DNA of 64,000 nt, from positions 41,347-105,346 of the IMG/VR virus record IMGVR_UViG_3300044675_005263. The stretch is one strand, 5' to 3'. The position numbers were made by a program, and so were the translations under genes. The notes below the pieces were generated by a model. That model saw only the letters and a program-made list of their open reading frames with translations, was not told where the DNA came from and made no database searches. Below are positions 2,739 to 21,186 of this stretch, one piece after another (position 1 is the first letter of the stretch; every line of letters starts with the position of its first letter). Origin of the DNA: a virus.

Positions 2739-2787
2739 CTTTGTATCACCTCCGTCATTTGTTGAGCAAGTTTATCATACCTTTTGA

Positions 2788-3084: not shown

Positions 3085-3106
3085 TTTTTATATCACCCCC
3101 TTTTTT

Positions 3107-3388
3107 TCATCTCAGTTTTACCCCTAGTTCGTGCCGACCCAAGTTATCTAAAGTTTCTTGGGCAATCTCGATAATCCGTTCTAGGATTTTCGGAGAAATC
3201 ATATGTTCCAACACGACAGGCTCCTCGCCTTCTGTGTGGTCATGGACAAAGAGAACAACATTTCCTGCTTCCGAATAGCCGAAGCCAATCGGATAGGTAG
3301 AGGTCATAAAATCTAAGTGCATGGTGTTATCAGACATTGGTGCTATCAGGGTTCCCTTTGGTAGAACCTGCTTTTTGACTTTTGCCAT
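3107..3388 (-). CDS. hypothetical protein
   Basis: start MAKVKK after conserved leader motif. Confidence 0.7.
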   Translation of the reverse strand: MAKVKKQVLPKGTLIAPMSDNTMHLDFMTSTYPIGFGYSEAGNVVLFVHDHTEGEEPVVLEHMISPKILERIIEIAQETLDNLGRHELGVKLR

Positions 3389-3431
3389 TTGGCTTTTTCC
3401 CTTCGTCATTTGTGGAAGTATCATAGCAGTT

Positions 3432-3923
3432 TTAGTGGTGGAAATCCACCGCAACCATAAATTGTTTTTTTGGGTCTTTCTCAATGCGCTCGTGTAGGTA
3501 TTGCAGATTTGCGGTGCCAGCCTCTAGGTCAAACATGGCACTATCGTAAGTCCAGTAGTCGGCAAGTGTTGAGCCAATGGTTCGCAAGTAATGACCGTCC
3601 ATGCCTAGATTATAGTTATTGACTATGGGTTTGTAATCGGCAATTAGATCAGAAATGTTCTCTCTACCTTCTAAGTAAGACAACGCTCTTTTCATATTGG
3701 CAACTCGGTATTCAGAGAACTCTTTTATCACTTCGTTCCACTTCTCAGGGTCGTTAGAATAAAGAATTACATCTGGCTCTCCTTCTCCAAAGAGTCCAGA
3801 GAAACGCCCACCTATCTCAGACCAATCAGACCAACTTGCCTCATCAAGTCTGCTACCAACTGCGTCAATAGCGTCTTGGTGGTTCTCAGCTTCAACAAAA
3901 ATCAACTGCACACTATGAGACAT
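3432..3923 (-). CDS. hypothetical phage protein (WxxIGGRFSG ... VDFH type)
   Basis: MSH start with GGGGTAAAAATG; DWSEIGGRFSG motif and C-terminal VAVDFHH. Confidence 0.75.
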   Translation of the reverse strand: MSHSVQLIFVEAENHQDAIDAVGSRLDEASWSDWSEIGGRFSGLFGEGEPDVILYSNDPEKWNEVIKEFSEYRVANMKRALSYLEGRENISDLIADYKPIVNNYNLGMDGHYLRTIGSTLADYWTYDSAMFDLEAGTANLQYLHERIEKDPKKQFMVAVDFHH

Positions 3924-3931
3924 TTTTACCC

Positions 3932-4132
3932 CTACACCTTTCCCCAAGAACGGGCTTCGGTGTAAGGCTCTGCAACATACTCAGCCCACTTGATTAAATC
4001 ACGGGGAAACTCACATAGGGCTTCTTGCTCTGCCAACTCTATCGCTTCGTCCTCTGTGTTGGCTTCGACTTCATAATAAATGTTGTTGTCCTCTGAGAGA
4101 TACCCTCGCACTATCCATTTCTGCTTTTCCAT
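3932..4132 (-). CDS. small acidic protein, EAxxxxEA family
   Basis: VEANTEDEAIELA motif. Confidence 0.7.
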   Translation of the reverse strand: MEKQKWIVRGYLSEDNNIYYEVEANTEDEAIELAEQEALCEFPRDLIKWAEYVAEPYTEARSWGKV

Positions 4133-4134
4133 TT

Positions 4135-4560
4135 TTACCCCTCTTGTTCGCTTTGTTCTAAGTTGGAAATGATTTCCTCAGGCGACATAAAATCTAAAAG
4201 GTCTAGGTGTGAAGTAAGTTCTACAACTTCGCACTCTCGGCACTCCTCTATTCTTTCCAGCCTTCTCAGCAGGGCTTCATCTCTTAGTGTTAGTTCCAAA
4301 CCTTCCTCTATCTTGGAAAAAATAACTCTCATCTGTAAATGAAATCTTTTCATATAGTCCAAAGAATTTTGGTATAACTCATTTGAAACTATGTCGTTTT
4401 CTTTGAGAATTTTCTCGTTGATTTTGCAGGTAGGTATCCACACAGTTTCATTATCTATGATTAGTTGATAGCCATCATCAGAAGTTTTCTTTGAGATAGG
4501 TTCGTAACTGTGTCTGACTCTGCTAACTGCCATGCTGTGAATACGAGTTCTCTTTTTCAT
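4135..4560 (-). CDS. hypothetical protein
   Basis: start MKKRT after leader motif. Confidence 0.65.
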   Translation of the reverse strand: MKKRTRIHSMAVSRVRHSYEPISKKTSDDGYQLIIDNETVWIPTCKINEKILKENDIVSNELYQNSLDYMKRFHLQMRVIFSKIEEGLELTLRDEALLRRLERIEECRECEVVELTSHLDLLDFMSPEEIISNLEQSEQEG

Positions 4561-4608
4561 TTTCTCCCTTTCGTCGTTTGATAAAGCCGAGCCTATCATA
4601 CCTTTCTG

Positions 4609-5064
4609 CTAATCCAAAACTAGAATTGCGTCTTTCTGCAAAATAGGTTTTCCCTCGTTCTCAATGTCGCAAACATTTACTATGTGTTCAGCGACAACCA
4701 CCTTCGCACTTTCTACTGCTTCGTCAATGGTGTGGGTAACTTGATCTAAATGGTTGCCATTTTGGTAGAGGTCAAACCAGTTGTTATGCACCCAGTAGTA
4801 ATCCTCATCGTCGTGGGTTGCTTCAAGCTTCTCGTCCGAGTCTAAGTCCGAGCGTATGAAATCATTTGGTGAGCAGAGGTCATAGTAGTAATCCTCACCC
4901 GCTTTGTATTTTAGGTGGGTATCCCCGTCAGCATAAACATCTACTTGGTATCCGTCTATCTCTATGCTTGCAACCCAACCACGGTCAAAGAACACGCTCT
5001 CTGTCCGTTTAGGGTGAGGTGTTTCGTTATAGACAATCTTGTATTCATACAGACCCGACTCCAC
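4609..5064 (-). CDS. hypothetical protein (WxxNNWF motif)
   Basis: GTG start just after the upstream stop; the longer track ORF overlaps the next gene. Confidence 0.65.
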   Translation of the reverse strand: MESGLYEYKIVYNETPHPKRTESVFFDRGWVASIEIDGYQVDVYADGDTHLKYKAGEDYYYDLCSPNDFIRSDLDSDEKLEATHDDEDYYWVHNNWFDLYQNGNHLDQVTHTIDEAVESAKVVVAEHIVNVCDIENEGKPILQKDAILVLD

Positions 5065-5068
5065 GGTT

Positions 5069-5305
5069 TTACCCCTCGCCGTTTGCTTGCCGTAAGAACT
5101 CGCCAATCTTGTCCGATAGGTCATAGTCAAGATCAACTTCGGCAGGGTCGTCAAAGTTAGTAGTTCTCCAAACCCCCTCACCAGTTTCAAGGTTGGTGTA
5201 TTCATAGACCACGCCGTCTTGGAAGTGTGCGTTTAGTGTTTCGTCCTCGGCACTCCACTTCTTTGTTTCCGTGTTGTATGAAAGTAGAAAATGTATCTCT
5301 CTCAT
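5069..5305 (-). CDS. hypothetical acidic protein
   Basis: ORF; GGGGTAAAAAAATG context. Confidence 0.7.
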   Translation of the reverse strand: MREIHFLLSYNTETKKWSAEDETLNAHFQDGVVYEYTNLETGEGVWRTTNFDDPAEVDLDYDLSDKIGEFLRQANGEG

Positions 5306-5308
5306 TTT

Positions 5309-5503
5309 TTACCCCCGCTCAATCGAATAAACGAGTTTAGTTAAATCTATGCTATCTCTCTCGTCAGGGTGTATTAACTCTGCCCACTCATCTCGGCAAT
5401 CAAGGCAGACCCAATCAATCCAATCCGAGCCTGTATCTATTACTAGGCAGTTCTCGGTATCGCACTCACGGCAAGTCAAGCCGTGAAAAACTCTTACCTG
5501 CAT
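5309..5503 (-). CDS. small zinc-ribbon protein
   Basis: two CxxC pairs; RBS AAAGGG. Confidence 0.65.
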   Translation of the reverse strand: MQVRVFHGLTCRECDTENCLVIDTGSDWIDWVCLDCRDEWAELIHPDERDSIDLTKLVYSIERG

Positions 5504-5794
5504 TTTTTCCCTTTCTCTCTTTGTAGCCCAACCCTATCATACCTATCCAAATAATCATAGTAGGAACTCTGAATTATTTTTTCCTAAATGCACTCCTGCA
5601 CCTCACGCTCAAAAAATTAAAAAAGGTGGCGGTCTGCCCGGAAGTAATAATTCACACTTGCCGTAAAGCTTCACGATCAAAATTTACCCCCACAAAGTGA
5701 AAAGCCCCACCGAGTAGGTGAGGCTTCTCTAGTTTCTAATCGGGGCGACACATGCTGGGAAAAATACATACCCAATTAGAAATCCTATTCTAGG

Positions 5795-7573
5795 TCAAGC
5801 GACCTGCCTTTGCCCTGCGGTTGAGAGGACTCGCTCTGCGGTTCGCCCAATAGCCAACGCCGACTCTGTGGGGCTGGTAATCCCTGCCACCACCTGAGCA
5901 TTTACGCCCTTGCAGAGATACTCTGCCTGTGCGCCTGAGTCGCCAATCGGAAGCCATAGAACTGCTACGCCATTTCGGGTGCAAGCCTTTAGCCAACGCT
6001 GAGCCAATTCGCTTTCCTCAGGTGTGTAATGTCCGTCCGACACAACCACGAGTAAGCGAGCGCCAGTTCCATTGAGAAGGTTGAGTGAGCCGTCCAATGA
6101 ACGAAATGCTCGGTCGAACTTTTCAGTTCCGTCAGGTGCAGAATAAACTGAAACTTCTTTTAGTCGCTGACCTGCTTTGAGTGTTGGGAAAACATCTGAG
6201 CCGTAATAAACCATAGCGCATTGACCCTGAACTCTACGAACTGCCTCAGACATAATCCATGCAGTAGAAGCCATTGGTTGCATAGCACTAGACATTGACC
6301 CTGAAATATCAACCATTACTCCAACTGTGAGTGTTGGTTCGTCTGTGTGCTTGCGAACTGTTTTGCGAAAAGCCTCTGCTTGCTTATGAACTCCACGAGA
6401 AGCAAGTGCCTTGCTCTGAATAATTGCACGAGTGCGTAATCTCCCCGGAGGTGTAATGCTATTTACTTCTGTAATGTCCTTCTCACGATACTTTGCCTTT
6501 TCCAATGCACGAGCAATCTTTACTGTCGCACTTCTTTCAGAAGCAATAGGCGCTCTTTTCTCAATCAACTTAGAGGCAGTTCGGAATTCTCCGGGACCTG
6601 AACTCTTTGAGAATACTTGACGAGAGATTTCCTCATTTTTCTTTTGCTCTTTAGAACTCATTGACTTCTTTTCAGCAGACTCTTTCATAGCCTCTGAACT
6701 CTGTTGCTCTGATAAATCATCTGCAACATTTTCAGAAACTTCTGAGTCCATGTCTGCCATGAGTTCGCTCATCATCTTTGCGAAGGCTTCCATTTCCTCA
6801 GGAGTAGGTTCTCCCTTTTCTTTCTTTGCTTCTCTTACCAACTCAGCCCACTCAACTGCTAATGGGTAGCAAGGAGAAATATCATGGTGGCGAGTGTGGC
6901 TTTGGAACTTCTCAATAATCGCAACCAACTTCGCAACTAGGTCAGCACCTAGAAAATCATTTACTTGCTTGATTAAATCTGTCGCTTCTGTTTCTAGTAA
7001 TGACCCTGCAACGATACGAGCATGAGCCAATCCCACCAACTGGCAAGCAGACCCAACGCTAGAATTCTCTGCAAAAGTTTCTTTCGCTTCGTCAATAATT
7101 AAACCCATAGCACTTGCTCGTAGAAAGTTCTTTGCTCTAGGCATAGCAATAATTCCCTGTGCCTCAATGCGACCTTCCTCTAATAACATCAAAGCCTGAA
7201 ACTCATCTTGCTTTAGGTCTTTAATTCCCTGAGCCATATCCCAAGTAGAAAACTTTGCGTGGAAGGCTTCGTGCATAATCGCACCAATCGCTTTTGGAAA
7301 CTCGAATTGGTTGCGTGGCTTTGTAAGGTCGTCAATCAGATTAGGTGTAATACCTTCTCCAAAAGCCTCAATCGTATTTACCTGCACCTCAGCAAGTGAA
7401 GGGATAAAGCAAGCAGGTGCGCCTTCACCTTTGTCTGTGCCAATGCAAGCAACAATGTCGCTTCGCTCAGACCACTCATTAACGAGCAATCCAATTTCGT
7501 ATCCAACTGGTAGCCACTCAGTAGGTGTCTTGACCCCTGAGCCTTTTGTTTCTAGTGGCTTAATGTGTGCCAT
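5795..7573 (-). CDS. vWA-domain protein with N-terminal HEXXH metallopeptidase-like domain (CobT/NorD-like)
   Basis: HEAFH...EEGRIE; MIDAS DISGS, later VVVSDG; adjacent to MoxR AAA. Confidence 0.85.
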   Translation of the reverse strand: MAHIKPLETKGSGVKTPTEWLPVGYEIGLLVNEWSERSDIVACIGTDKGEGAPACFIPSLAEVQVNTIEAFGEGITPNLIDDLTKPRNQFEFPKAIGAIMHEAFHAKFSTWDMAQGIKDLKQDEFQALMLLEEGRIEAQGIIAMPRAKNFLRASAMGLIIDEAKETFAENSSVGSACQLVGLAHARIVAGSLLETEATDLIKQVNDFLGADLVAKLVAIIEKFQSHTRHHDISPCYPLAVEWAELVREAKKEKGEPTPEEMEAFAKMMSELMADMDSEVSENVADDLSEQQSSEAMKESAEKKSMSSKEQKKNEEISRQVFSKSSGPGEFRTASKLIEKRAPIASERSATVKIARALEKAKYREKDITEVNSITPPGRLRTRAIIQSKALASRGVHKQAEAFRKTVRKHTDEPTLTVGVMVDISGSMSSAMQPMASTAWIMSEAVRRVQGQCAMVYYGSDVFPTLKAGQRLKEVSVYSAPDGTEKFDRAFRSLDGSLNLLNGTGARLLVVVSDGHYTPEESELAQRWLKACTRNGVAVLWLPIGDSGAQAEYLCKGVNAQVVAGITSPTESALAIGRTAERVLSTAGQRQVA

Positions 7574-7800
7574 GTCTTTTGTCCTTTTCCCTTTTAGTTT
7601 TGTATCGTGTGTCTAACGATAGGTCTATCATACATTTTTATTTATCTATATGCAACTTTAGGTCTATCTGTGTCTAGGTCGGAAGGTGTGAATTTTGATC
7701 GTAGGACTCAAAGCTTCCCCTCGCTTTTACCCCCTTTGGTTATGGTGAGGACTCCACCCATGAAGCCCTCACCCAACCAAGTCAGCAATCTAATAGGGAG

Positions 7801-8859
7801 TTAGATTTTCGCTGGCTTATGCTCAGCGCCATAGGCACGAGCAATAACATCAACCACCACATCTCTATCTAACTCAGGTGCGCTCGCAATCAAGTTAGCG
7901 ATAGCAAACTCTGTGCCAAATAGTTCGGCAGTAGAACGGAAAGCAAGCAACTCTCTCATCTGAGGCGACCAAGAAATCTCGGCGCTATCGCCCTGAGTTC
8001 TCTTAAACAAGTTCTGAGCAACGCTCACCATTGTCTTTGGAACTCCCAACTTCTCAGCCAGTTTCCAATCTGTGGTGAGTTCTGCCTGAATTGCAAAACG
8101 AGATAGCAACGCTTCTGAAAGTCGAACTCCCGGAGCGTTAGGGTTGGTTGCACCCACTACGAAAAAGTTAGGGTGGATTTTGATAGTTCCTCTATCAGGG
8201 TTCATTGGAATTGTGAATTCCTTTCGTCCGTCCATAGCACCATAAGCAAATGAAAGAACTTTAGGGTCAATCAAACCAATTTCGTCAATCAAAAGTGGTT
8301 CGCCATTTTCTACTGCCTTTGTAAATTCTCCGTCAATCCACTCAAAGTTTCCACTAGGTGTCTGAACGAAACTTCCCAAGAAATCTGAAACTTCTGTATC
8401 TCCACTTCCAATAATTGTGTGGAGAGTTTCATCAGCAAATGAAGCCTCAATGAGTGCAGTTTTTCCAGTTCCCGGAGCGCCATAGAGAAGGACGAACTGT
8501 GGGTCGCCAACTCCTTCTGAATTGTATTTTGAGGTGGCTTCTCTCGCTTTGCGGAGAACTGCTATGTCCTTATGAATTCCCCATTGGCGAGTGAAATACT
8601 TTTGTCCATTAGGACGAACATAAAATTCGTCAGCCTCGAAAGACTCGACATTTACTTCACTAGGACTCATAGCACCAACTCTCTCTTTGGCTTTTCTGTC
8701 TGCGCCACTTGCTCGCTCAACGAAACGACCATTAGGTAATACTTTTGCATTTAGTCGGAGTGAAGTTTCCTCATGCACATTTTGCACTATGCACTCTGAA
8801 ACGATATTCCAAAAGTCGCCCCCAATAGAAGCCAAACTCTCTTTGATAATTGTATCCAT
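7801..8859 (-). CDS. MoxR/CbbQ/CobS-like AAA+ ATPase
   Basis: Walker A GAPGTGKT, Walker B LLIDE, ATNP, EALLSRF. Confidence 0.9.
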   Translation of the reverse strand: MDTIIKESLASIGGDFWNIVSECIVQNVHEETSLRLNAKVLPNGRFVERASGADRKAKERVGAMSPSEVNVESFEADEFYVRPNGQKYFTRQWGIHKDIAVLRKAREATSKYNSEGVGDPQFVLLYGAPGTGKTALIEASFADETLHTIIGSGDTEVSDFLGSFVQTPSGNFEWIDGEFTKAVENGEPLLIDEIGLIDPKVLSFAYGAMDGRKEFTIPMNPDRGTIKIHPNFFVVGATNPNAPGVRLSEALLSRFAIQAELTTDWKLAEKLGVPKTMVSVAQNLFKRTQGDSAEISWSPQMRELLAFRSTAELFGTEFAIANLIASAPELDRDVVVDVIARAYGAEHKPAKI

Positions 8860-8871
8860 TTTTATTGCCCC

Positions 8872-9327
8872 CTAAGCAATCTCAACAGGAAAGCCCAATG
8901 CTTTTCTGCTTTGGTTGATACGATAAACAACCTTGATAGGTGTTTCTCCCTTTGATACTTCTGCCAAATCCTTCTGAGAAGTTTCGACTAGAAATGGCTC
9001 ATTAACAATAGTCCAACCACCTTTAATAAAACCCTCGAAAATAGAAGTCAGATTTTCTATGCGCTTCTCAATGTAGGTTTCTCTATCTGAGTCAGCCAAA
9101 TCCTTCACGCCAATTTCAGCGAGTTCTGTGGCTGGTCGTAGTGTTGTAGCAGACCACAACTTCTTTGGTTTATCAGCAGATAACATGCGACGATAAACCT
9201 TTGCTGGAACTGGATTTCCTTCGGGAGAAAATCCGTCAGGAGTCATAAAGAACTCTGTGCGAAATCCCTCTTTAGAGAACTCAGCATAAACTGTGAGTCC
9301 TTGCACTTGCTTTGTTTTGTCTAACAT
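8872..9327 (-). CDS. hypothetical protein
   Basis: start MLDKT after GACGAAAGGA leader. Confidence 0.7.
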   Translation of the reverse strand: MLDKTKQVQGLTVYAEFSKEGFRTEFFMTPDGFSPEGNPVPAKVYRRMLSADKPKKLWSATTLRPATELAEIGVKDLADSDRETYIEKRIENLTSIFEGFIKGGWTIVNEPFLVETSQKDLAEVSKGETPIKVVYRINQSRKALGFPVEIA

Positions 9328-9487
9328 GGGTGTCCTTTCGTCGTTTCGCACCCCCAAAGTGCGATAAGGCAACTCTAGCAGAAAACATCATAGAGGCAAA
9401 ATTAGCCTAAGCGTGTCGTAAAAATAGTTCTGCCCCAACGCTAAAACGACGAATAAAAGCGTGGGGCAGAATCTTGTTTTGATCGTA

Positions 9488-9775
9488 TTAGGAAATAGAG
9501 ATTTCCTTTACGATTTCAGGGTCAGGGGTAAAAACTGGCTTCTCCTTATGAAGCTTTAGTCCAAATTTCTTGAACTCTTTATTAAAGGCTTTATCCTTCT
9601 GTGGTCGTCCTGCTTCTACCCACTCGGAAATGACTCGAGCTGCTAGATACCTTTCCTCGTCCTTTGCTTCCATGACCATAAGGAAGTCCTCCCGGATCCA
9701 CGCACCAGTTCCAATCACCGTTATCTGATTGGCGTTACCGTAGTTCCCGTCGATATCGAAATAATGTAATCTCAT
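9488..9775 (-). CDS. hypothetical protein
   Basis: YFDIDGNYG motif; GAGGTAAAAAATG. Confidence 0.7.
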   Translation of the reverse strand: MRLHYFDIDGNYGNANQITVIGTGAWIREDFLMVMEAKDEERYLAARVISEWVEAGRPQKDKAFNKEFKKFGLKLHKEKPVFTPDPEIVKEISIS

Positions 9776-9851
9776 TTTTTACCTCTCTTGTATTCCCACT
9801 CCGTTAGGGTAGCACGCCCAGACATTTCCATCTGGGCACGCCGACCTCGAA

Positions 9852-10085
9852 TTATTTTTTCCGGGCTTTCTTCAGCATCTTGGATATTTTCTTGAGTTCG
9901 TCCTCGCCAAGTTCCACGCCGATTTCGTATGCAACATCTTTGGCGTATCCGTTATCCATGGACTCTTCCAACTCCGCTTTATAGATTGGGTCAAGCCCGT
10001 TCATGTCCTCGTCGTCAAAGATATAGGCGGTGTCCGATAGGGCGAACCAAGTATCCGTTCCAGTATGGCAAACATATAGGGTCAT
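9852..10085 (-). CDS. hypothetical protein
   Basis: ATGA overlap with upstream gene. Confidence 0.7.
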   Translation of the reverse strand: MTLYVCHTGTDTWFALSDTAYIFDDEDMNGLDPIYKAELEESMDNGYAKDVAYEIGVELGEDELKKISKMLKKARKK

Positions 10086-10687
10086 GCCGATACCTCCGCT
10101 TCCTCTTCCTCGTCCTCTTTATAGTTAGGGCAATCCGAGTAGTAAGAACATTCCTCGGGGTCTTCAACGCATGGACATTCCTCGCCCATCTTCTCCCAGC
10201 AAGCGTGGTCAATCTCGCCACCCTCTTCGCTGAACTCCTCGCCGTTCTGGTAAATAACAATCCCCCAGAAGCACATGCCAGTCTCATTGTATTTGTGTTC
10301 AATACAAAGAGTAGGGAAGATTTCGGCAAGCCGAGCAATCGCTATATCTGGTGGAGACCAAGCCGAATCAAAAGAGTAGGAAAGTGAATCAGTAGATTCG
10401 CTGAAATAAACTGAGTCCTCGCCACAAACATCCCACTTAGTTCCCCAAGAGTTGATGTGGTTGTGATACCAGTCCTCGTCTCCTTGAGACCTAAAAGCCT
10501 CTCCAATTCTTGGCTCTGCATCTTTTGTTGGAGTAGTGATGTTGTAAAGAGAAAAGATTGGATTTGCAATCTCTTCAACAGTTCCTTCAATGGTTCGCTT
10601 GATTGGGCGACCAACAAACTCCTTAAGATTTTTTAGAGTCTCTTGGTCCCCGGAAATGTTTATTGTATTTGAGCACCAGTTAGGCAT
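10082..10687 (-). CDS. DUF1281/YubB ferredoxin-like phage protein
   Basis: MPNWCSN start, WYxxxxxxWGTKWD, FDSAWSPP. Confidence 0.85.
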   Translation of the reverse strand: MPNWCSNTINISGDQETLKNLKEFVGRPIKRTIEGTVEEIANPIFSLYNITTPTKDAEPRIGEAFRSQGDEDWYHNHINSWGTKWDVCGEDSVYFSESTDSLSYSFDSAWSPPDIAIARLAEIFPTLCIEHKYNETGMCFWGIVIYQNGEEFSEEGGEIDHACWEKMGEECPCVEDPEECSYYSDCPNYKEDEEEEAEVSA

Positions 10688-10928
10688 TGTTCTCCTCGTG
10701 TTCTATTACAGATTGAGTTATCTCTAACCCAAGAGCCTGAATCTCTTTTCCCAAATCGTCAATCGCTTCATCTATGTTTTGACGAACATCAAAGTAATCC
10801 CATGGATTTTCGTCAGTCTTTGGTGAGCGAATGTATTGCAAATCAACTGCACATGAGACAGCAATGTTGATTACCTTGATTGCGTTCTCATCACCAGCCA
10901 AATACTTTTCTGCTAGTTCTTGATACAT
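10680..10928 (-). CDS. hypothetical protein
   Basis: ORF after leader motif. Confidence 0.7.
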   Translation of the reverse strand: MYQELAEKYLAGDENAIKVINIAVSCAVDLQYIRSPKTDENPWDYFDVRQNIDEAIDDLGKEIQALGLEITQSVIEHEENNA

Positions 10929-10976
10929 GTTTTCCCTTTCGTCATTTGTAGTTTTATTATAGCGATTTACAATCGC

Positions 10977-11195
10977 TTATTCAACTTCCACCACTCGGAA
11001 GTTTTCATCTTCCAAGATAGAAACGCTGAAGTCCAAGTCAATCCCTCTATTGCGCTCCCCAACTTCAGGGAGGTCGTTGATGTTGATTTCATCATCCATT
11101 ACTTGCTTTAGAAGAGCCTTTGCCTCTTCATCATTCTTTGCCTCAAACCAAACTTGGTTCATTGAGATTTCGTTGAATCTAAACGAGTATTGCAT
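10977..11195 (-). CDS. small acidic protein, EAxxxxEA family
   Basis: FEAKNDEEAKALL; leader motif upstream. Confidence 0.7.
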   Translation of the reverse strand: MQYSFRFNEISMNQVWFEAKNDEEAKALLKQVMDDEININDLPEVGERNRGIDLDFSVSILEDENFRVVEVE

Positions 11196-11458
11196 TTTTT
11201 CCCTTTCGTCATTTGTGGTGTTGGGGAACGAGTTTTTGTTCCTAGGACTTCAACCCTATTCAGCATCAGCAAATAGAATCTGCCCCAACAAGCCAAACTT
11301 ATCATACCTTTCTAGATAAGTGCAACAACACGCCAGAAAGTTTTTGACACTAGACATCTTGGTAAATGAAATTGTTTTTTCCCGGCGACCTGGTCCCTCC
11401 ACACTGGCAACAGCGAATTATTATTTCCGGGTCCAGGGCCTGGCCGCCGACGCTGTCG

Positions 11459-11686
11459 CTAAATTATATTTTCCGGGGTGTCATCATTTGCTGCATCAAC
11501 GATTCTTGTGCGTGCAACTGCAACATCATAAAGTTCGTTGTACTTGACCAAGTTGTAGATGTCCTCGCAGAACATCTCGGCGGCAGCAATCTGGAGTTCG
11601 TCATCCGTCATTGTTATTTCCGGGTCTGTCTGAAGCTGGTCGAGATCGAACTCGAGTTCTATTTTCGTAACTAACTTTCTTGTCAT
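11459..11686 (-). CDS. hypothetical acidic protein
   Basis: ORF with GAGGAG RBS. Confidence 0.7.
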   Translation of the reverse strand: MTRKLVTKIELEFDLDQLQTDPEITMTDDELQIAAAEMFCEDIYNLVKYNELYDVAVARTRIVDAANDDTPENII

Positions 11687-11689
11687 CCG

Positions 11690-11866
11690 TTACTCCTCAC
11701 ACTCGCAGAGATGTCCACAGGTATAGCAGACCCACGCCGTTGTCAGGTGGGTGTAGTACCCATATCGTCTCTCGCCGTGAAATCCTTCAGAGTAGGCGTA
11801 CCAACGCCCGTCATCTTCCTGAAAGGTGGCTCCGTCTATCTCTCGAGTCTTTTCTAATGAAATCAT
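11690..11866 (-). CDS. small protein with C-terminal CxxCxxxCxC (not in ORF track)
   Basis: hand translation MISLEK...WVCYTCGHLCECEE; GGAG RBS. Confidence 0.65.
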   Translation of the reverse strand: MISLEKTREIDGATFQEDDGRWYAYSEGFHGERRYGYYTHLTTAWVCYTCGHLCECEE

Positions 11867-11955
11867 TTTTTACTCCGTTTCTATTAAAGATACGGCGCAC
11901 CCTTGCCGTGTCACTGCACGAACTTAAAGGGCACGCCGTAATATCTATTTGTTTT

Positions 11956-12399
11956 TTAAATTGCTTCTTCCAAACTGAAAGGTGCGCTCGCCGTCAAGCC
12001 CGTTGCGTTGCGGTAGAGCCGTGCCCCTTCTTGCCAGTCAGCCCACGAGCCGTCCGAGCCGATGCTCACCAAACTTCCGTATACCTGCTTGAGGTGAATG
12101 AGGCAAGCCGTTACTACAGCGTCGTATGGTTTGTATGCCGTCTTTGTAAACCCGAAGCCCGATGAGTTGATAGACCAGTCAAAGGTCTCGTGTGAGTCTG
12201 GACCGTAGCCGTTGAAGCGGACACTTTCTTTTGTGCATTCCCACTGGCCGAGATGGTCGCCCATTGCATCGGCAAGTTGAATCTTTTCCACGTTGGTGGC
12301 GTATTCAATAATGGTCCGAGCCCCGTTCATAAACATTTCAAATCTCAAAGCATCTTCTGGTGAGGTGCCTGTTTTTGTGTAGTAGTGCGTGTATCCCAC
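11956..12399 (-). CDS. conserved phage protein (GYTHY...HETF...FxKTxxKPYD family)
   Basis: GTG start giving (M)GYTHY after leader motif; HETF, FTKTAYKPYDAVVTACL, SDG. Confidence 0.8.
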   Translation of the reverse strand: MGYTHYYTKTGTSPEDALRFEMFMNGARTIIEYATNVEKIQLADAMGDHLGQWECTKESVRFNGYGPDSHETFDWSINSSGFGFTKTAYKPYDAVVTACLIHLKQVYGSLVSIGSDGSWADWQEGARLYRNATGLTASAPFSLEEAI

Positions 12400-12529
12400 G
12401 GTGTTCCCTTCGTCATTTAGCAGAGTGATTTCTGCTGCAGGATTTATCATAGAGGGTCGTTTCTTTCTGTGTCAAGTATTGATGAGAAGTATTTCTAGAG
12501 TCGACCTATATCCAAAACGGGCAAAACAA

Positions 12530-13580
12530 ATTGTTACTTCCGGGAGGAGGCGGCCATCCTGGATCCGTCTTCTTGAAGTTGTTTGTTCCGGGCTTGATGC
12601 ACTGCAGCTGCGGGCTCTAACGTCACATTATATTTTCCGGGCTCCTGGATCCGAGCTCGGTCCCTCGGTTTTAAAGTTGAGTCGACATGACTCAAGTTTG
12701 CAGTACTTGCATTAATCCATCGATGAGATCTGAAGTGCAGCGCAGCTGTGATCCGCTGTCAAGTTGTTATTTCCGGGTACCGTATGTCCGCTTTGCGAGC
12801 ACTTGCTCGCAAAGTCTAATCACCCTGTCAAGTGCTTGTCAAGCTACACGCACCGTTAAGTTATTTGTTCCAGGCATCGAGCTACAAGCTGCGTCCCATA
12901 ACTCACACCGTTATATATTTGCGAGCGCTATACCCATGCCGCTCTTTGAATCCCAAGCCGTTTGCAAGCTGCAGCTGTAATCCCAAGCCGATGTTTTATT
13001 TTCCGGGCAAAATTCTTCGGGCCCGATCCGTCTTCACGTTTGTATTGTATTTTCCGGGACAGCTGGACCTGTTGGTCCCGTTGGTCCCGTTGGTCCTCGC
13101 CGCTGCGGGTTATATTATATTTTCCGGGCTTGATGCAAGCACGCCGCCTCCGCCTCCACCGCCGCCAGTGTATCTTGCCGCTGTCGTCAAATTATATTTT
13201 CCAGGCTGGAGGAGCTGCATCCCGGCCCTGGCAAATAGATTTGTTTTTTCCAGGTGATCCAGATCCATCCTGGCACGCCGCCGTGCTCAAGTCAAGTTAT
13301 TAGTTCCGGGCATCGGATCTGCAGCTGCTGTTCCCATCTGAGTTGTTAGTTCCCGGACCAATCCGATCAATACGATCAATCCGATCAAAGTTCTCTATAT
13401 AGAGTAATTTCTTATTTAGAATCTGGCCAGGTAACGAAGTTTAATCAAGTTAATCCTATTGATCGGTTTGATCACGCTTAGTTGGATATCCGTCATCTAT
13501 TCGATTCAGGCGTACAAGGTTAGAATTAAGTCTGTCCGTCAACTTCGGATCTGCAGCTAGCTACACCCGGAAGTAACAAC
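12530..13580 (+). repeat. array of degenerate 15-bp repeats RTTRTWNNTTCCNGG
   Basis: direct copies at 12530,12578,12627,12763,12860,12993,13044,13114,13191,13240,13296,13342; inverted copy 13566-13580; non-coding. Confidence 0.9.
12676..12696. promoter_or_regulatory. HAIR (HspR operator)
   Basis: GTTGAGT-CGACATG-ACTCAAG vs consensus CTTGAGT-N7-ACTCAAG, with AAA/TTT flanks. Confidence 0.75.
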
Positions 13581-13660
13581 TTAGATAGATGGCGAGGAAG
13601 GCGAGGAAGGTTTTCAAAAAGCTCACCGTTATATATTCAGGCGTCCCTATCCCACGCCGC

Positions 13661-13678
13661 TAGTTGAAACTTCAACTA
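13661..13678. promoter_or_regulatory. MarR-type (RosR-like) operator palindrome
   Basis: TAGTTGAA-AC-TTCAACTA fits TWGTTGA-N4-TCAACWA. Confidence 0.5.
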
Positions 13679-13739
13679 CTCGTGGGTAAATAACAATCTG
13701 CGATTCCCTTGCCGCTTGCCGCTTTGATACTTGACAACC

Positions 13740-13786
13740 GTTAATATAACTAATACGCTATCCGTTAGCGTATTGGTTATATTAAC
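13740..13786. repeat. 21-bp-arm inverted repeat (hairpin or terminator)
   Basis: GTTAATATAACTAATACGCTA-TCCGT-TAGCGTATTGGTTATATTAAC, one T.G pair. Confidence 0.85.
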
Positions 13787-13967
13787 TACAAGCGCACGCC
13801 GTTTCGGAAGTTAGAGTTGTTAGTTCCGTTAGGAGCTCTGCGGCAGCATTTGCTCTCGCCGTTACTCGGATGTGTTCTTCCCGTGTCTTGGCTAAATCAA
13901 TATCCGCTTTCAAGCTCGCCGCTAGCTCTGCAGCTAGCTGCAACTGTAAGTTGTTATTTCCCGGCAT
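13782..13967 (-). CDS. small helical protein
   Basis: ORF overlapping the end of the TerS-like gene. Confidence 0.5.
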   Translation of the reverse strand: MPGNNNLQLQLAAELAASLKADIDLAKTREEHIRVTARANAAAELLTELTTLTSETACACS

Positions 13968-14892
13968 CTGGATCTGGCCCGTCTTCCTCTTTGGCTGCGG
14001 TTGTTATGTCATAGACATCCGATACCTCGGCGTCAATTATTTTTACCCCGTCGTTGGCTAAGTTGCTTGCCGTATGTGCAGCACCTGCCGCTAGCCGTTG
14101 CAAACGTTCAGCCACGATAACGTGAGCTGGCCGCTCCCCAGAAATATCAACTCCGATATCCAGCTCGGTCCCGCCTCGCACGCCAGCACGGTCAAGTAGT
14201 TCCGTTGCTGCTTTGAGCTGGACTGGTTCGGATACTGCGTTCTCCATCAGTTCCTCGAGCTTATCCACAGCGTAGCTTGCCGATTGCATAATCTTGATTC
14301 GTGCCCGTTCGACATCTGCGCCCGGCCGTCTGATGCCTTTAAGGTGGACACGACACAGACCGTCATCTTTAACACGACCTGAGCCCCACAACATACATCG
14401 GATGCCGTCTGACTTAATCTTGGTACAGCGATGAGGCATAGCCGCTGGCGCTCGCTTTGAGGATTTCGGGCCAGTCTCTTGTTCTGCTTGCCATGTTCGG
14501 GTGGCGCCGATAACCCAAGGTGGGCAAATCTTTATAGCATCGTCATCGAGGAGGAGCTCGAGGCCCGTCAGGAAATCCGAGTTATTATTTCCCGGATCTA
14601 ACAATAACGGTTTCTTCTCGGCCAAGCTCATCAGCCGCCTTTCTTTGATGGCTTCTTGTGAGCGGGCGGCAATCAACCCTGTCGGGGCGCCTGACTGGTC
14701 ATAGACCGAATCCCAGTTGAGCATCGCCTTTCGAAGGGCGGCTCGATTCTCATAAGTATCTTCTACAACTCCCTTTTCAACTTCGAGCATGCCAAGAGCC
14801 GAAAGGTCAGGGCGATAGTCGATGGGGGTATCTACAACTGGTGTTGTATCTTCCGGGCCATCTTCAGGATCGAAGGGGGAGATGTCTGTCAT
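13954..14892 (-). CDS. probable terminase small subunit (actinophage zinc-finger type)
   Basis: RCx6GxRC...CRVH zinc finger followed by AVDKLEELM...SEPVQLKAATELLDRAG helix motif. Confidence 0.6.
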   Translation of the reverse strand: MTDISPFDPEDGPEDTTPVVDTPIDYRPDLSALGMLEVEKGVVEDTYENRAALRKAMLNWDSVYDQSGAPTGLIAARSQEAIKERRLMSLAEKKPLLLDPGNNNSDFLTGLELLLDDDAIKICPPWVIGATRTWQAEQETGPKSSKRAPAAMPHRCTKIKSDGIRCMLWGSGRVKDDGLCRVHLKGIRRPGADVERARIKIMQSASYAVDKLEELMENAVSEPVQLKAATELLDRAGVRGGTELDIGVDISGERPAHVIVAERLQRLAAGAAHTASNLANDGVKIIDAEVSDVYDITTAAKEEDGPDPDAGK

Positions 14893-15075
14893 GGTTGGTT
14901 GCCTGTTAAGTCGAGGATTTGTTTGATGGCAAATTCCTCAGCGGCTTGTGCATCTGCCAAAGCTTTTGCTTGGGCTATCTCTGCTGGTGTTGGTTCTGTT
15001 GGTGTTGACATTTTTACCTCTCTATGATAAGGAAGCCCCTAGAGTTTTTACCCCTAGGGGACAACCTTTTTACCC

Positions 15076-15369
15076 CTACTTCTTTTTTGCTGGGGCTTTC
15101 TTCTTTGCGGCCGCAGCTGTGGAAATCTTCTTTGTTACTTCCGCCGTCGCTGTTTCAGCGATCAGTCCGAAGGCTGGGTCACTCTTCTTTGCGTATCTGA
15201 TTACAACAGGAACTAAGGATGCCCAGAGAGCATTGGCTACAAGAAGCCATTCGCTTGAACCGAAGTTAGTTGGACTGCCTACTCCGCTTGTTTGGCTAAC
15301 AATGGTGATTGCACCAATGATTTGACCAAGCAAGTTTCTTAAGTAGGAGTCGATCATTGCTTTGTTCAT
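15076..15369 (-). CDS. holin-like membrane protein
   Basis: two hydrophobic segments, SYLR...PVVIRY...DPAFG, basic tail. Confidence 0.6.
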   Translation of the reverse strand: MNKAMIDSYLRNLLGQIIGAITIVSQTSGVGSPTNFGSSEWLLVANALWASLVPVVIRYAKKSDPAFGLIAETATAEVTKKISTAAAAKKKAPAKKK

Positions 15370-15602
15370 GTATTACTCCATATCGTCAAACAGGGTGCTT
15401 GACATATGAACAATAGCACGATTAGGGGTAAAAAGATTTTTGCGCCCGTTGAGAGAGATACAAGGTGTTTTACCCTTTCATAAACAACACTTGGTTTGAG
15501 CGTGTTGAACTACGCACGGATTAGGGGTCTAATTACTGTTTCATCATAGAGGTTGTTGTACAGAAAGTTGTGTAAGTTGTTATATAAAAGTGCTTCTGAA
15601 AG

Positions 15603-15675
15603 CGCCCTCGGCAGGAGTCGAACCTGCGGCCAATCGGGTAGAAACCGAGTGCTCTATCCTCTGAGCTACGAAGGC
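15603..15675 (-). tRNA. tRNA-Arg(UCU)
   Basis: GCCTTCG/CGAGGGC acceptor stem, D arm GCTC/GAGC, loop TT-TCT-AC, GGTTCGACTCC T arm; CCA not encoded. Confidence 0.9.
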
Positions 15676-15783
15676 TAGTCTAAATCTTTCTTAGGGTGTT
15701 TGACTTTCCTATTATATTTCTTTTTGTTTTTGGTAGGGGTAGTTGCTGACGACCTACGCAGATCCATAAGTCGTCTAAGTTCC

Positions 15784-16023
15784 TCAGCTGTTTTGCTGAA
15801 CCTGAACTTCATCTTGTCTCCAACCAATATAAGACTTCACATACACGACACCATAAGCAATTGCAGCAATAATAAATCCATACTGCTTTGTTGTTAAAGC
15901 ATAGACAATCCAAAGACATTCATTTAGAAAAAGGATTGGCCAACCCCAGATAGTCTTTCTGCCAACTAAGAATATTCCTGATACTCCTATGAGTGCCAGC
16001 AGATAAGACCAATACTCAGTCAT
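15784..16023 (-). CDS. PnuC-like small membrane protein
   Basis: three hydrophobic helices, GW...LW..YAL...QYGF pattern. Confidence 0.6.
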   Translation of the reverse strand: MTEYWSYLLALIGVSGIFLVGRKTIWGWPILFLNECLWIVYALTTKQYGFIIAAIAYGVVYVKSYIGWRQDEVQVQQNS

Positions 16024-16128
16024 ACTTTGTTCTCCAGTTCTTACCATAGGCAATATAGCAACCAACTCGATTGAACCAATCAGCTGAGTCGTGAATAAAC
16101 CAGAATGGCTTAGCTAATAACTTTCTCA

Positions 16129-16467
16129 TCAAATGTCTTCTACTACTTCATCGAGTTCAAACTCTTGACCTTCAACATAAGGCTTGTCATTGAAACCGTT
16201 TCTATCTGTTGCTAGTTCACCGTTTATTATATCTATAGCATGGCGTAGTCCAAGGGTGTAGAGAGTCTTGTCTTCATCACCATAAAGAGATTCCCAAAGG
16301 TTGATCTTGTCATTGAGTTGTCTTTGAATATCCATCTGGGCATCATCAATCGCCACACCTAGGTGCGTTATGATTTTCATAGTTGCCTCTGTAGATATCT
16401 TACTTCCAGCCATCATAGAGTTAGTTACTTCTATAATTGGATTCGTAATATTGTCTTTAAGACTCAT
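16129..16467 (-). CDS. hypothetical protein
   Basis: ORF coupled to upstream gene. Confidence 0.7.
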   Translation of the reverse strand: MSLKDNITNPIIEVTNSMMAGSKISTEATMKIITHLGVAIDDAQMDIQRQLNDKINLWESLYGDEDKTLYTLGLRHAIDIINGELATDRNGFNDKPYVEGQEFELDEVVEDI

Positions 16468-16976
16468 CAGACTTCCTCTCTACACTTTTGGCATAAAAAT
16501 CTATCGTAGCCTTCCGAGGCTCCATCGAAAACTAACTTTCCAGTTTTGGTTAAGGGTACTGGATAAATCTGATGTTCGTCACCAGTAGCATCGCAACGGG
16601 CGCATGTTCGTTCGATCAACCACTCTGCAGTTGCTTTCTCTGGCATATTACGCAATCCACGAATAAGTGCATGTAAAGCTCCACCACCCTCAGTTCGTCT
16701 AAGGAATGTTCGAGTATCACTTACAAGTAGAACAGGTAGAGGTGCTCTGCAAGCACAACTCATTCCACCGTTAGGTTTACACAAGTAGCCGTCAGTTGGT
16801 CCTGACTTCCAAGGAATATCTTTTGGCTCAGCAGGTTTTTTGTGTTTGTTAATTGCGTGACCACAAATGCAGACTCTCCTATCTAGAGGTCCACCCTTTC
16901 GCTGTCTGTCATCAAACTCATCTACCTCATTAGGGTCAATACCCATCTGGGCTAGAAAATCATTGGGGCTACTCAT
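16467..16976 (-). CDS. Cys-rich zinc-binding protein
   Basis: CICGH...H, CxC, two CxxC. Confidence 0.75.
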   Translation of the reverse strand: MSSPNDFLAQMGIDPNEVDEFDDRQRKGGPLDRRVCICGHAINKHKKPAEPKDIPWKSGPTDGYLCKPNGGMSCACRAPLPVLLVSDTRTFLRRTEGGGALHALIRGLRNMPEKATAEWLIERTCARCDATGDEHQIYPVPLTKTGKLVFDGASEGYDRFLCQKCREEV

Positions 16977-19131: not shown

Positions 19132-21186
19132 ATGTCAATGTCATTTGTTTTCTCTTTTAAGTTATCCGAAGATTTCTTAGCAACCTATAAGGATAAGAAG
19201 GCTCCTTTCGGATATAGAGATGCAGGTGGCAACTCAGTAGGTGAGATTACTTTCCTTCGCACATACTCTCGTAAAAAAGAAGATGGAACCAAGGAGACTT
19301 GGCTTGAAGTTTGCGAGCGAGTAATCAATGGCATGTACTCAATTCAAAAAGATCACTGCAAAACTAATCGTCTTCCTTGGTCTGACACTCGTGCAGCAGC
19401 TTCAGCTAAAGAAGCATTTGACCGTTTATTTAACTTGAAGTGGACACCACCGGGACGTGGGCTTTGGGTTATGGGAACTCCACTTGTTAATGAGCAAAAG
19501 AACTCTGCAGCACTACAAAACTGTGCTTTTGTTTCAACACGAGAGATGACAAAGAATGATCCAGCAAAACCATTTGCATTCCTTATGGAAGCATCAATGC
19601 TTGGCGTTGGTGTTGGCTTTGATGATTTAGGTGCTGATAAAGATTTCACTATCTATAAGCCAAACCCAGAAGTTGTTACAACAGTAGTCATTGAAGACTC
19701 CAGAGAAGGTTGGGTTACTTCAACTTCACAACTTATTAATTCATATTTGAAATCAGATCAAGTAACTCTTGCATTTGATTACTCACTTGTTCGTCCAGCT
19801 GGTGCACCAATTAAAATCTTTGGTGGAACTGCTGCAGGTCCAGATCCACTTATTAAACTCCACAACTACATTAGAAGGTTATTTGATGGCCGTGAAAATG
19901 AAAAAGTCACTCGTACTGATATCGCCGATATTGGTAATCTCATTGGCGTGTGCGTTGTTTCTGGCAATGTTCGTCGCTCTGCTGAACTCCTTATCGGAAG
20001 ATTAGGCGATGAAACATTCTTAAACCTTAAGAATCCAGAAGTATTTCCAGATCGCAACTCATACGATCCAGAGAATCCCGGCTGGGCTTGGATGTCTAAC
20101 AATTCAATCTCTGCAGAGGTTGGACAAGACCTATCAGGAATTGTTGAAGGCATTGCACTTAACGGAGAACCCGGCGTTGTTTGGCTTGACCTATCACGCA
20201 AGTATGGTCGCTTAGCAGATCCAATTAACAATAAGGATCATCGCATTATGGGCTACAACCCTTGCGCTGAACAATCACTTGAGTCATATGAAATGTGTAC
20301 TCTTGTTGAAACTTATTTAAATCGTCACGATGACTTGGAAGATTTTAAGCGCACATTAAAATTTGCTTATCTTTACGCAAAGACTGTCACTCTTCTACCA
20401 ACACATTGGGAAGAGACCAATGCGATCATGCAAAGAAATCGCAGAATTGGCACGTCAATATCTGGAGTTGCTAACTTTGCAGATCGTATTGGATTACCAA
20501 TCCTTAAGGACTGGATGGATAAAGGGTACAGCGTAGTTAAGAGTTATGACGTGACTTACTCAGAATGGCTAGGTATTCGTGAGTCAATCAAGACTACAAC
20601 CGTTAAGCCATCAGGCACAGTCTCAATCTTAGCTGGAGAGTCTCCAGGAGTTCACTGGACTCCGGGCGGAAAATACTTCAATCGTGCTATTCGCTTTGCT
20701 AACTCAGATCCAATGCTTCCACTCTTTAAGATGGCTAACTACAGAGTTGAACCAGCATCAGAGTCACCTGACACAACTTCAGTTGTATTCTTCCCAATCG
20801 AATCAATGGCAGAGCGTGCAGAGAAAGATGTAACTATCTTCGAGAAGATGCACTTAGCTGCAGCAGCTCAATACTACTGGTCTGATAACTCGGTGTCAGT
20901 AACAGTTTCATTTGACCCAGAAACAGAAAAGCAACATGTTGGAACTGTATTACATATGTTTGATGGCCAGCTAAAGACTGTTTCATTTTTACCATCTGGA
21001 AACTTTACATATCCCCAAATGCCTTACACGCAAATAACTCAGGAAGAATATAATGAAGAAGGAGTTAATAAACTCTTCCCAATTGATTTTTCAGGAGTTT
21101 ATGCAGGTATGGGAGCCGATGCTATCGGTGAGGCTTATTGCACAACCGACGCTTGTGAGGTTAAACTAATCGCAAATAATCAGTAA
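19132..21186 (+). CDS. nrdJ: class II (AdoCbl) ribonucleoside-triphosphate reductase, monomeric type
   Basis: FLRTYSR, PPGRGLW, GNVRRSA, NPCAEQ, TVKPSGT, C-terminal CTTDAC. Confidence 0.95.
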   Translation: MSMSFVFSFKLSEDFLATYKDKKAPFGYRDAGGNSVGEITFLRTYSRKKEDGTKETWLEVCERVINGMYSIQKDHCKTNRLPWSDTRAAASAKEAFDRLFNLKWTPPGRGLWVMGTPLVNEQKNSAALQNCAFVSTREMTKNDPAKPFAFLMEASMLGVGVGFDDLGADKDFTIYKPNPEVVTTVVIEDSREGWVTSTSQLINSYLKSDQVTLAFDYSLVRPAGAPIKIFGGTAAGPDPLIKLHNYIRRLFDGRENEKVTRTDIADIGNLIGVCVVSGNVRRSAELLIGRLGDETFLNLKNPEVFPDRNSYDPENPGWAWMSNNSISAEVGQDLSGIVEGIALNGEPGVVWLDLSRKYGRLADPINNKDHRIMGYNPCAEQSLESYEMCTLVETYLNRHDDLEDFKRTLKFAYLYAKTVTLLPTHWEETNAIMQRNRRIGTSISGVANFADRIGLPILKDWMDKGYSVVKSYDVTYSEWLGIRESIKTTTVKPSGTVSILAGESPGVHWTPGGKYFNRAIRFANSDPMLPLFKMANYRVEPASESPDTTSVVFFPIESMAERAEKDVTIFEKMHLAAAAQYYWSDNSVSVTVSFDPETEKQHVGTVLHMFDGQLKTVSFLPSGNFTYPQMPYTQITQEEYNEEGVNKLFPIDFSGVYAGMGADAIGEAYCTTDACEVKLIANNQ

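Follow-up and report, generated by a model that had tools for sequence, protein, structure and literature searches.

The 64,000-nucleotide window studied here comprises bases 41347-105346 of the viral contig IMGVR_UViG_3300044675_005263 (IMG/VR; 105 kb, classed as linear and approximately 79% complete), and contains an untranslated stretch, at 12451-13782, in which an array repeats a 17-bp box twelve times in the direct orientation and once inverted. This array is a real, selected and conserved cis-element. It is almost certainly a docking platform offering many sites to a DNA-binding protein; such a platform for a phage protein, which a first-pass annotation of the window had proposed in generic form, is the best-supported class of explanation. 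Within this class we favour, at a probability of about one in three, an operator or roadblock-type array through which a phage DNA-binding protein would control early transcription; the binding of a protein, its identity and its effect on transcription are the parts of this reading that we infer. The source virus is an uncultured freshwater actinobacteriophage that looks lytic. Its nearest named phage is the uncultured Actinomycetia phage DSL-LC01 (79% amino acid identity for the large terminase, TerL), followed by Microbacterium phages of about 190 kb (A3Wally, Cece and others).

The box is selected in untranslated DNA

The pattern RTTRTWNNTTCCNGG has 23 matches in the window as compared with 0.02 +/- 0.14 in 100 dinucleotide-preserving shuffles, an enrichment of about 1000-fold, and the strict pattern has no match in the other 41 kb of the contig. 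Genes run on the minus strand from position 1 to 18.5 kb and on the plus strand from 19.1 kb onward, and the box is accordingly best read along the local, minus-strand genes, as CCNGGAANNWAYAAY; in full it reads CCNGGAANNWAYAAY-TY on that strand, spans approximately 17 nt, and has a 5' flank that displays no conservation. Nine positions are invariant (C1, C2, G4, G5, A6, A7, A11, A13 and A14) and six are degenerate, the selected positions including a CC-N-GG, symmetric and free at its centre, and after it an A-rich half. With a position weight matrix built from the copies, the array scores 20-27 bits, and the shuffled genome gives no match at 12 bits or above. The 21 minus-strand copies recognized by this matrix all fall within 663-14857, and plus-strand copies are found at 5637, 13566, 18194, 28902 and 32923. 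The principal groups of copies are as follows.

12530-13356, minus strand: main array of twelve co-oriented 17-bp boxes with GC-rich, dyad-containing spacers (pattern search, shuffles and position weight matrix).
13566-13580, plus strand: single inverted box copy at the upstream edge of the array, identical in the relative L016 and at the same relative place in the relative L104.
11371-11624, minus strand: mini-array of four boxes, three in 46-nt steps (11371, 11417 and 11463) plus one at 11610, its end separated by about 60 nt from a downstream early promoter at about 11307.

Between 12480 and 13790 ten strict direct copies (12530, 12578, 12627, 12763, 12860, 13044, 13114, 13191, 13296 and 13342) and two degenerate ones (12993 and 13240) are present, which together with the inverted copy gives exactly the count reported in the first-pass annotation. 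The steps along the array are 48, 49, 136, 97, 133, 51, 70, 77, 49, 56 and 46 nt; steps of 46-56 nt are thus frequent, yet the period is not constant, and helical phasing was ruled out as no 10.5-bp phase was found among the array boxes. Copies outside the array are located at 649, 5637 (inverted), 9851, 11371, 11417, 11463, 11610, 13950, 14581, 14843 and 28902, all of them listed earlier and all genuine, and to these the copy at 18194 was added; the elements previously listed at 31.4 kb and 33.2 kb turned out to be weaker. Three intergenic elements of the plus arm (28830-28990, 31350-31510 and 33075-33235) share ACACACA...CAACCC...TAACGGAG(T/C)GG(A/G)CGCC, followed by a box-like CC(C/G)GGAAAA, and the copy at 28902 is followed 6 nt on by TATAAT and 6 nt further by an ATG, which looks like a leaderless start.

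The copies that lie inside genes occupy different reading frames (read as PGNNN, PEIT, PENI and PEDT), which supports selection at the DNA level, as had been suggested from the sequence earlier, and the free centre of CCNGG together with the occurrence of copies in several frames points to recognition of double-stranded DNA rather than to coding or RNA. The array region itself had been delimited as non-coding over 12480-13790; it is indeed untranslated over 12451-13782, and its boundary had to be corrected, since 13782-13967 is a conserved open reading frame (ORF) of 61 aa, which puts the start of the untranslated DNA at 13782 instead of past 13954. On the sense strand of 12451-13782 there is no open frame of more than 87 codons. 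Open frames on the antisense strand reach 145 codons here and 204 in L016; relative to the related sequence, they carry indels of 1, 2, 11 and 29 nt among others, which are not multiples of three. A repeat-protein gene on either strand was therefore rejected, the boxes occupying different frames, the indels non-triplet and the substitutions without codon periodicity (34/32/30 by codon position).

In the alignment of the window with L016, from the relative G001, the nine invariant box positions are 95.4% conserved and the spacers 74.5% (Fisher p = 6e-8), with the degenerate positions of the box itself conserved at only 68%. Pairwise alignment also displays gain and loss of whole array units between close relatives. 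When IMG/VR was scanned for two boxes 25-45 nt apart, only G001 (IMGVR_UViG_3300032214_000528, a complete relative of 135 kb with 85-90% nucleotide identity and the same array) and one more contig, L104, were recovered. The latter, at about 70% nucleotide identity, retains the array, the copies in the small-terminase-like (TerS-like) gene, the inverted copy after a conserved core, and approximately ten sense copies. More distant relatives, whose TerS-like protein is 55-70% identical, have ORF-poor gaps of 0.6-2.4 kb at the same place, with arrays of related boxes. The array boxes of four of these are:

L022: sGGAAATTAT(A/T)ATTT, 9 copies.
L065: AACTTCCAAATAACTTTG, 5 copies.
L029: ACATC(GG/CA)AATAACTTT, 5 copies.
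L026: ACATCCAAACAACTT.

The core common to the related boxes is approximately AAAYAAC..TT, and the CCNGG pentamer is specific to the lineage of the window. The earlier statement that only the middle base of CCNGG varies consequently holds here and does not extend to the related L022 array (sGGAAATTATWATTT), in which the pentamer is not kept. Both box orientations occur in the arrays of L039 and L052, and in L021 a related box is found in intergenic gaps upstream of ORFs. No array was found in L069, L075, L090, DSL-LC01, Cece and A3Wally, in which the small ORF is followed directly by the endolysin gene or other genes; DSL-LC01 has no box copies.

The array spacers are also distinguished by their content of palindromes, with 26 six-bp palindromes per kb versus 9 per kb (z = 3.5). 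Coding DNA of these genomes contains 3-10 per kb, and that of the contig about 9 per kb, where about 15 are expected; the arrays contain 12-36 per kb, which is above shuffles in four lineages (z = 3.5, 3.9, 6.2 and 3.3), with 24-36 per kb in those of this contig, L016, L022 and L073. CAGCTG, CTGCAG, GAGCTC and GGATCC are the commonest, and the spacers are enriched in GGATC (7.5 per kb versus 1.8 per kb genome-wide) as well as in CAGCTG, CTGCAG and GCAGCTGC. Across the genome CCWGG is depleted (69 observed versus 179 expected) and CCSGG is enriched, partly through the box. The array dyads may be either functional partner sites or DNA shielded from restriction, and the contrast in palindromes hints at a restriction pressure from which the array stretch would be exempt. 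As for the box being a methylation target, no DNA methyltransferase was found in the window, where the 262-aa methyltransferase-domain ORF at 24149-24937 is of a generic type that is not DNA-specific. In L021 the ORF at 8113-9456, right after the array, begins with MAAKFTYIDLFAGIGGF, which looks like motif I of a C5-cytosine DNA methyltransferase; the window has no equivalent ORF after its array. CAGCTG and CTGCAG also recur with a strict 15-nt period at 39125-39425, inside the ORF 36283-40092, whose product is a 1269-aa protein with a PA14 domain; they encode there a pentapeptide repeat for which Pfam gives an extensin-like match.

Neighbouring genes and the putative genome end

The array is embedded in the following features of the window.

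11956-12450, minus strand: first gene past the array, 164 aa, with more than 100 homologues; ATG at 12450.
12446-12475, minus strand: canonical promoter-like TTGACA-N18-TATGAT, 55 nt beyond the final array copy; it overlaps the 164-aa gene at its start.
12813-12842, minus strand: promoter-like TTGACA-N18-TAGACT inside the array.
13476-13740, minus strand: most conserved non-coding core, near-identical to L016 and about 70% alignable to L104.
13740-13790, minus strand: 45-bp near-perfect AT-rich palindrome (20-nt arms, 5-nt loop) directly after the stop of the 61-aa ORF.
13782-13967, minus strand: conserved 61-aa ORF (..TREEHIRVTARAN..), with a homologous small ORF in L018, L040, L056 and L075.
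13954-14892, minus strand: TerS-like gene, 312 aa, with a Cys-rich zinc-type motif and a C-terminal helical core; box copies 14581 and 14843 lie inside it.
15460-15487, minus strand: conserved box TTGTTTATGAAAGG and flank, then a promoter-like stretch; 475-833 nt upstream of the TerS-like gene in relatives (L016-L067).
15603-15675: tRNA-Arg.
19132-21186: B12-type ribonucleotide reductase.
40805-42214: TerL.
42649-45306: PrimPol/D5 (P4-alpha-like) primase-helicase.

The conserved core contains the hairpins AGTTGAA..TTCAACT and GGCGT..ACGCC and a box AATATATAACGGTG, a second copy of which lies near 12910, as well as a block that separates the inverted copy from the first direct one. An AT-rich patch lies at 13360-13480 (65-68% AT), in place of which L016 has two extra boxes. 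The position of the palindrome after the small ORF is kept in relatives and its sequence is not (L029 7151-7194, L039 7033-7076, L052 7078-7123); it may be a terminator that lacks a T-run or a dyad binding site. Codons 2-6 of the 61-aa ORF (PGNNN) are the box copy at 13950-13964, which also spans the stop codon of the TerS-like gene. The 164-aa gene directly follows the array in L022 as well; its product was discarded as the binder, having homologues far beyond this lineage, no Foldseek match at E <= 0.001 (best VIA Z, 5.7) and, in the ESM Atlas, matches to unnamed clusters only.

Several smaller elements were also noted. The sequence TCTAGAGTCGACCT at 12494-12507 resembles a plasmid polylinker; contamination by a cloning vector was rejected, since natural relatives have the entire region in syntenic and diverged form, L016 having kept only the GTCGAC part. 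The box did not fit the IHF consensus on inspection. Inside a long spacer, an inverted repeat CTTGAGT-N7-ACTCAAC (12672-12700) resembles an HspR operator and, lacking conservation in L016, is probably incidental. A start-associated motif (A/G)GGGGTAAAAA(A)ATG stands directly before many early start codons of the minus arm (about 40 sites, among them 15012, 9777, 5307, 4133, 3924 and 1906), and copies of GGGGTAAAAA with no start codon following are present at 691, 1123, 15046 and 15068. At 15036-15068 two copies make up a terminator-like hairpin, CCCCTAGGGGTAAAAACTCTAGGGG, with its arms and loop; it is located between a gene for a 97-aa membrane protein and the 40-aa ORF preceding the TerS-like gene. 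In relatives the start-associated motif takes the form GGGGTAAAAAT or AGCAAAAAGTAAAAA, found before ATGs and within the non-coding arrays.

Searches of Pfam and PHROGs with the 312-aa protein alone gave nothing significant. With a profile built from 14 homologues, a match was obtained to the PaP3 small terminase (7joq, E = 8.6e-4) in its helical core, 12 of the 14 weakly match PHROG 2538 ('terminase small subunit'), and the homologue in Cece is annotated as terminase small subunit; from these matches we consider the protein about two-thirds likely to be TerS-like. Its AlphaFold model (predicted local distance difference test, pLDDT, 55) was unsuited for searching. The ORF at 40340-40798, beside TerL, is a candidate second TerS.

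In Cece, A3Wally, Big4, Zooman and Pumpernickel the homologue of the TerS-like gene is gene 1, starts at nt 63 and is present twice per record, and related Arthrobacter phages have a shorter match (about 30% of the protein) in gene 1, a few hundred nt from the left end and likewise twice per record. The direct terminal repeat of Cece measures 18,079 bp and begins 62 nt before the homologue; no array was found in it. Because the homologue opens an 18-kb terminal repeat in cultured relatives, it is plausible that the array lies 2-3 kb inside the physical end and within a long terminal repeat. The first-pass annotation had placed the array next to a TerS-like gene near a genome end: the TerS matches are weak and consistent and the homologue is gene 1 of a terminal repeat, so that the placement is plausible by homology. 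Among 80 related IMG/VR contigs, 5 have their first base within about 110 nt of TTGTTTATGAAAGG; L037 and L057 among them share a homologous start to within 2 nt, 14-16 nt after it. Approximately 0.3 such starts would be expected by chance. The TTGTTTATGAAAGG site is therefore a candidate for the physical terminus, the terminal-repeat boundary or the terminase cut site, with modest support from the contig starts. A common contig end point downstream of the TerS-like gene was also looked for, and no clustering was found there.

Operator, genome end, origin or promoter as possible roles

As an operator, the array would offer a sequence-specific DNA-binding protein about twelve copies of a single asymmetric 17-bp recognition site; it would have arisen by tandem duplication of units of about 46-51 bp, each composed of an AT-rich box and a GC-rich, dyad-bearing spacer, and would occupy the untranslated leader between the terminator hairpin of the first operon (40-aa ORF, TerS-like gene and 61-aa ORF) and the first early promoters. 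A phage-encoded protein loading on the co-oriented sites would build a large nucleoprotein complex, and this complex would insulate or repress the transcription that enters and starts in the early region, as a stoperator- or Cro-type shut-off does, with isolated copies just upstream of other early promoters as further targets. Boxes lie 6-70 nt upstream of predicted promoters at 12530 (promoter 12475-12446), 11371-11463 (about 11307), 649 (about 618, for which the distance is 25-45 nt) and 28902 (TATAAT), and those at 9851, 11463 and 13950 overlap or abut stop codons, as stoperators do. In favour of this reading, strong copies run along local transcription in 23 cases and against it in 3, over both gene arms. 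The early promoters of the phage form a class of their own, aatGCAGGAAGG-N5(tnTGn)-TANNNT, with more than 14 copies, in which a CAGGAAGR box is located in the spacer (-25 to -18) and no -35 element is present; sites are found at window positions 625 and 4608 and at contig positions down to -9753 (minus arm), and at -9271 to -4499 on the plus strand. The array box and this CAGGAAGR box have C-N-GGAA in common.

The closest parallels are the stoperators of cluster A mycobacteriophages (the L5 gp71 sites) and the C1 operators of P1, which are asymmetric sites of 13-17 bp, present in many copies and oriented with transcription. Like these, the array has many copies of an asymmetric site, an orientation tied to transcription, and copies in short intergenic gaps or overlapping stop and start codons; unlike them, it is mostly confined to one untranslated block of 0.9 kb in a phage that looks lytic, whereas stoperators and P1 operators are spread genome-wide in temperate phages with a known repressor. 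A number of points weigh against an operator role. Genome-wide dispersal with a cognate repressor gene, the mark of stoperators, was not observed: of the 16 exact copies in G001, the complete relative, 12 fall inside 3.2 kb and almost none are dispersed, so that the element is mostly local, and no candidate regulator or repressor was identified. The adjacent 164-aa protein is modelled confidently (pLDDT 88.6) and gave no match to a DNA-binding fold. The orientation count is inflated by tandem-duplicated copies that are not independent, and some of the related arrays (L039, L026 and L052) are of mixed orientation. To our knowledge, twelve operators packed into 0.9 kb have no close precedent among phage repressors, and the TerS-like neighbour and putative genome end would suit packaging or end functions equally well.

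A genome-end or packaging element is among the possible, if unlikely, alternatives, either as a platform for the TerS-like protein (pac or cosB) or as an end-proximal signal resembling the T5 iss or the short-repeat arrays at T7 termini. The array starts 170 nt past the TerS-like gene, with two boxes within the gene and a third at its stop codon, which is the adjacency to a small terminase gene expected of a pac or cosB site, on a TerS assignment made from weak matches; the place of the homologue at the left end of the Cece repeat, and likewise in A3Wally and others, and the contig starts near TTGTTTATGAAAGG point the same way. The specific TerS or pac role put forward earlier nevertheless lost ground, since the array is missing from Cece, A3Wally, DSL-LC01, L069, L075 and L090, which share the conserved TerS-like protein, and since a candidate terminal box with better conservation is found some 550 nt upstream of the gene. 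Moreover, the protein is 57-67% identical across lineages whose boxes differ, TerL is 26 kb distant, 1.3 kb far exceeds known pac or cosB sites, and both the terminal repeat and its boundary are placed by homology. Untranslated repeat region 3 of T5 (iss), in the left terminal repeat, measures 1.2-1.7 kb, contains nine DRD copies, inverted repeats and palindromes, and is conserved, its function being unproven and debated (bioRxiv 10.1101/866236). Both regions are non-coding, crowded with direct repeats and palindromes and conserved among relatives of a large phage; the T5 region is known to lie in the terminal repeat, at its inner end after the pre-early genes, and has paired DnaA boxes, whereas the array follows the first operon, is assigned to a terminal repeat by homology, is dominated by one 17-bp box, and has no DnaA box (at most one mismatch) in 12451-13790. 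By analogy with T5, an improbable extension would have the genome delivered in two steps, with the array as the stop or checkpoint signal: the first 2 kb or so (a promoter, the gene for the 97-aa membrane protein and the operon of the 40-aa, TerS-like and 61-aa ORFs) would enter first, and the TerS-like zinc-motif protein expressed from it would then act on the twelve boxes to release or pull in the rest. Were this so, host nucleases would not reach the DNA retained in the entry channel, which would explain why palindromes and restriction-type sites are tolerated only there. The centromere-like site that had also been suggested lost its footing, as no ParA/ParB-type match was found among the neighbouring ORFs.

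Replication and transcription offer other accounts of the same boxes. We regard a replication origin as unlikely; in it the boxes would be iterons for a phage initiator such as the C-terminal domain of the primase-helicase, which would bind them as the P4 alpha protein binds ori and crr, with the mini-array at 11.4-11.6 kb as the second cis-acting site. The phage does encode a P4-alpha-like primase-helicase that would need an origin, and in this untranslated, palindrome-rich DNA the direct repeats and the conserved inverted copy flank the conserved core and the AT-rich patch. Lineage-specific box sequences with changing copy number are iteron-like, and boxes of mixed orientation surround a centre in some relatives. 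However, the AT-rich patch is not conserved in L016, the 46-136 bp spacing over 0.9 kb is far looser than in usual iteron sets, the primase-helicase gene is 30 kb distant, DnaA boxes are absent, GC skew shifts only at the divergence point of the gene arms, and the copies upstream of promoters and at stop codons would be left unexplained. Iteron arrays and copy-control loci are known from P4 (ori/crr) and P1 (oriR/incA), and sopC of F comprises twelve 43-bp tandem units, a unit size close to that of the array. They share with it 10-12 direct copies for a monomer-type binder, variable number, lineage specificity and a second cluster about 1 kb away, but here the spacers are not conserved, the spacing is irregular, the site is not an inverted repeat, the only AT-rich patch is replaced in L016, and no initiator or partition genes are adjacent. 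It is more doubtful still that each box is a -10-type promoter (GGAA-NN-TATAAT), the array being a stack of tandem promoters or PeSL-like cassettes emptied by deletion, or a promoter cluster of the early region such as the T7 A1-A3 promoters, which drive or pull in that region. Five copies are a perfect TATAAT; the related box of L022 and L021, GGAAATTAT(A/T)ATTT, contains TATAAT or TATTAT and lies upstream of ORFs; and boxes are oriented along transcription in units of an AT-rich box and a GC-rich dyad that are gained and lost whole among close relatives, as are PeSLs (PMC4122927). Yet A at -11 together with T at -7 occurs in only about 12 of 25 copies (5 of 12 in the main array), the hexamer ends in T in about 12 of 25 and begins with T in 8 of 25, and its commonest forms are AACAAC and AATAAC. 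With a properly spaced -35 missing and neither genes nor start signals separating the copies, the boxes do not look like sigma-A/sigma-70 promoters; the strong selection on C1 and C2 is not expected of a -10 element; the true early promoters are a separate class (CAGGAAGR-N5-TGnTANNNT); and a scan of window ORFs revealed neither a phage RNA polymerase nor a sigma factor. PeSL cassettes of T4-type phages combine a promoter-like box with a stem-loop in a plastic early region (PMC4122927, PMC2839356), and resemble the array in their short repeated units, AT-rich box plus stem-loop, and gain or loss between close relatives; they flank small ORFs and carry full early promoters, whereas here no ORFs lie between units and most boxes have no usable -10. 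An element acting as RNA, either a non-coding RNA that titrates an RNA-binding protein through its repeated GGA boxes or else a repeat decoy or mini-CRISPR, is very improbable: the boxes do run along transcription in repeat/'spacer' units of 46-51 nt with a GGA core in each, but folding energy is ordinary (z = -1.3 sense, -2.1 antisense), an Rfam scan of 9000-16500 (E <= 0.1) returned only the tRNA-Arg, the boxes are 15-17 nt long with six degenerate positions and an irregular spacing of 46-136 nt, unlike CRISPR repeats, a free CCNGG centre is expected for a protein that reads a symmetric double-stranded pentamer, and one copy is inverted and conserved as such. A structured RNA and a CRISPR array were both rejected on these grounds.

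Implications for phages of freshwater Actinobacteria

Large lytic phages of uncultured freshwater Actinobacteria are abundant, and their control regions are uncharted. The analysis defines a module at the start of the early region of one of them, comprising a terminator-like palindrome, a conserved core, and one inverted and about twelve direct copies of a selected 17-bp box, and this module probably sits near the physical end of the genome. It belongs among known kinds of element, namely operator or iteron arrays and the repeat blocks of terminal regions, and is not a new category. The box provides an exact, short DNA bait for finding its binding protein. Three close relatives with gain and loss of units and distant ones with variant boxes constitute a comparative series, and the avoidance of palindromes genome-wide versus their richness in the array is a clue to the exposure of these phages to host restriction. 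If a role in early shut-off, replication start or the control of genome entry were true, the array would be the first such cis-element in this phage group, and such a control role could help to explain the long-puzzling repeat regions that lie beside the terminal repeats of T5 and T7.

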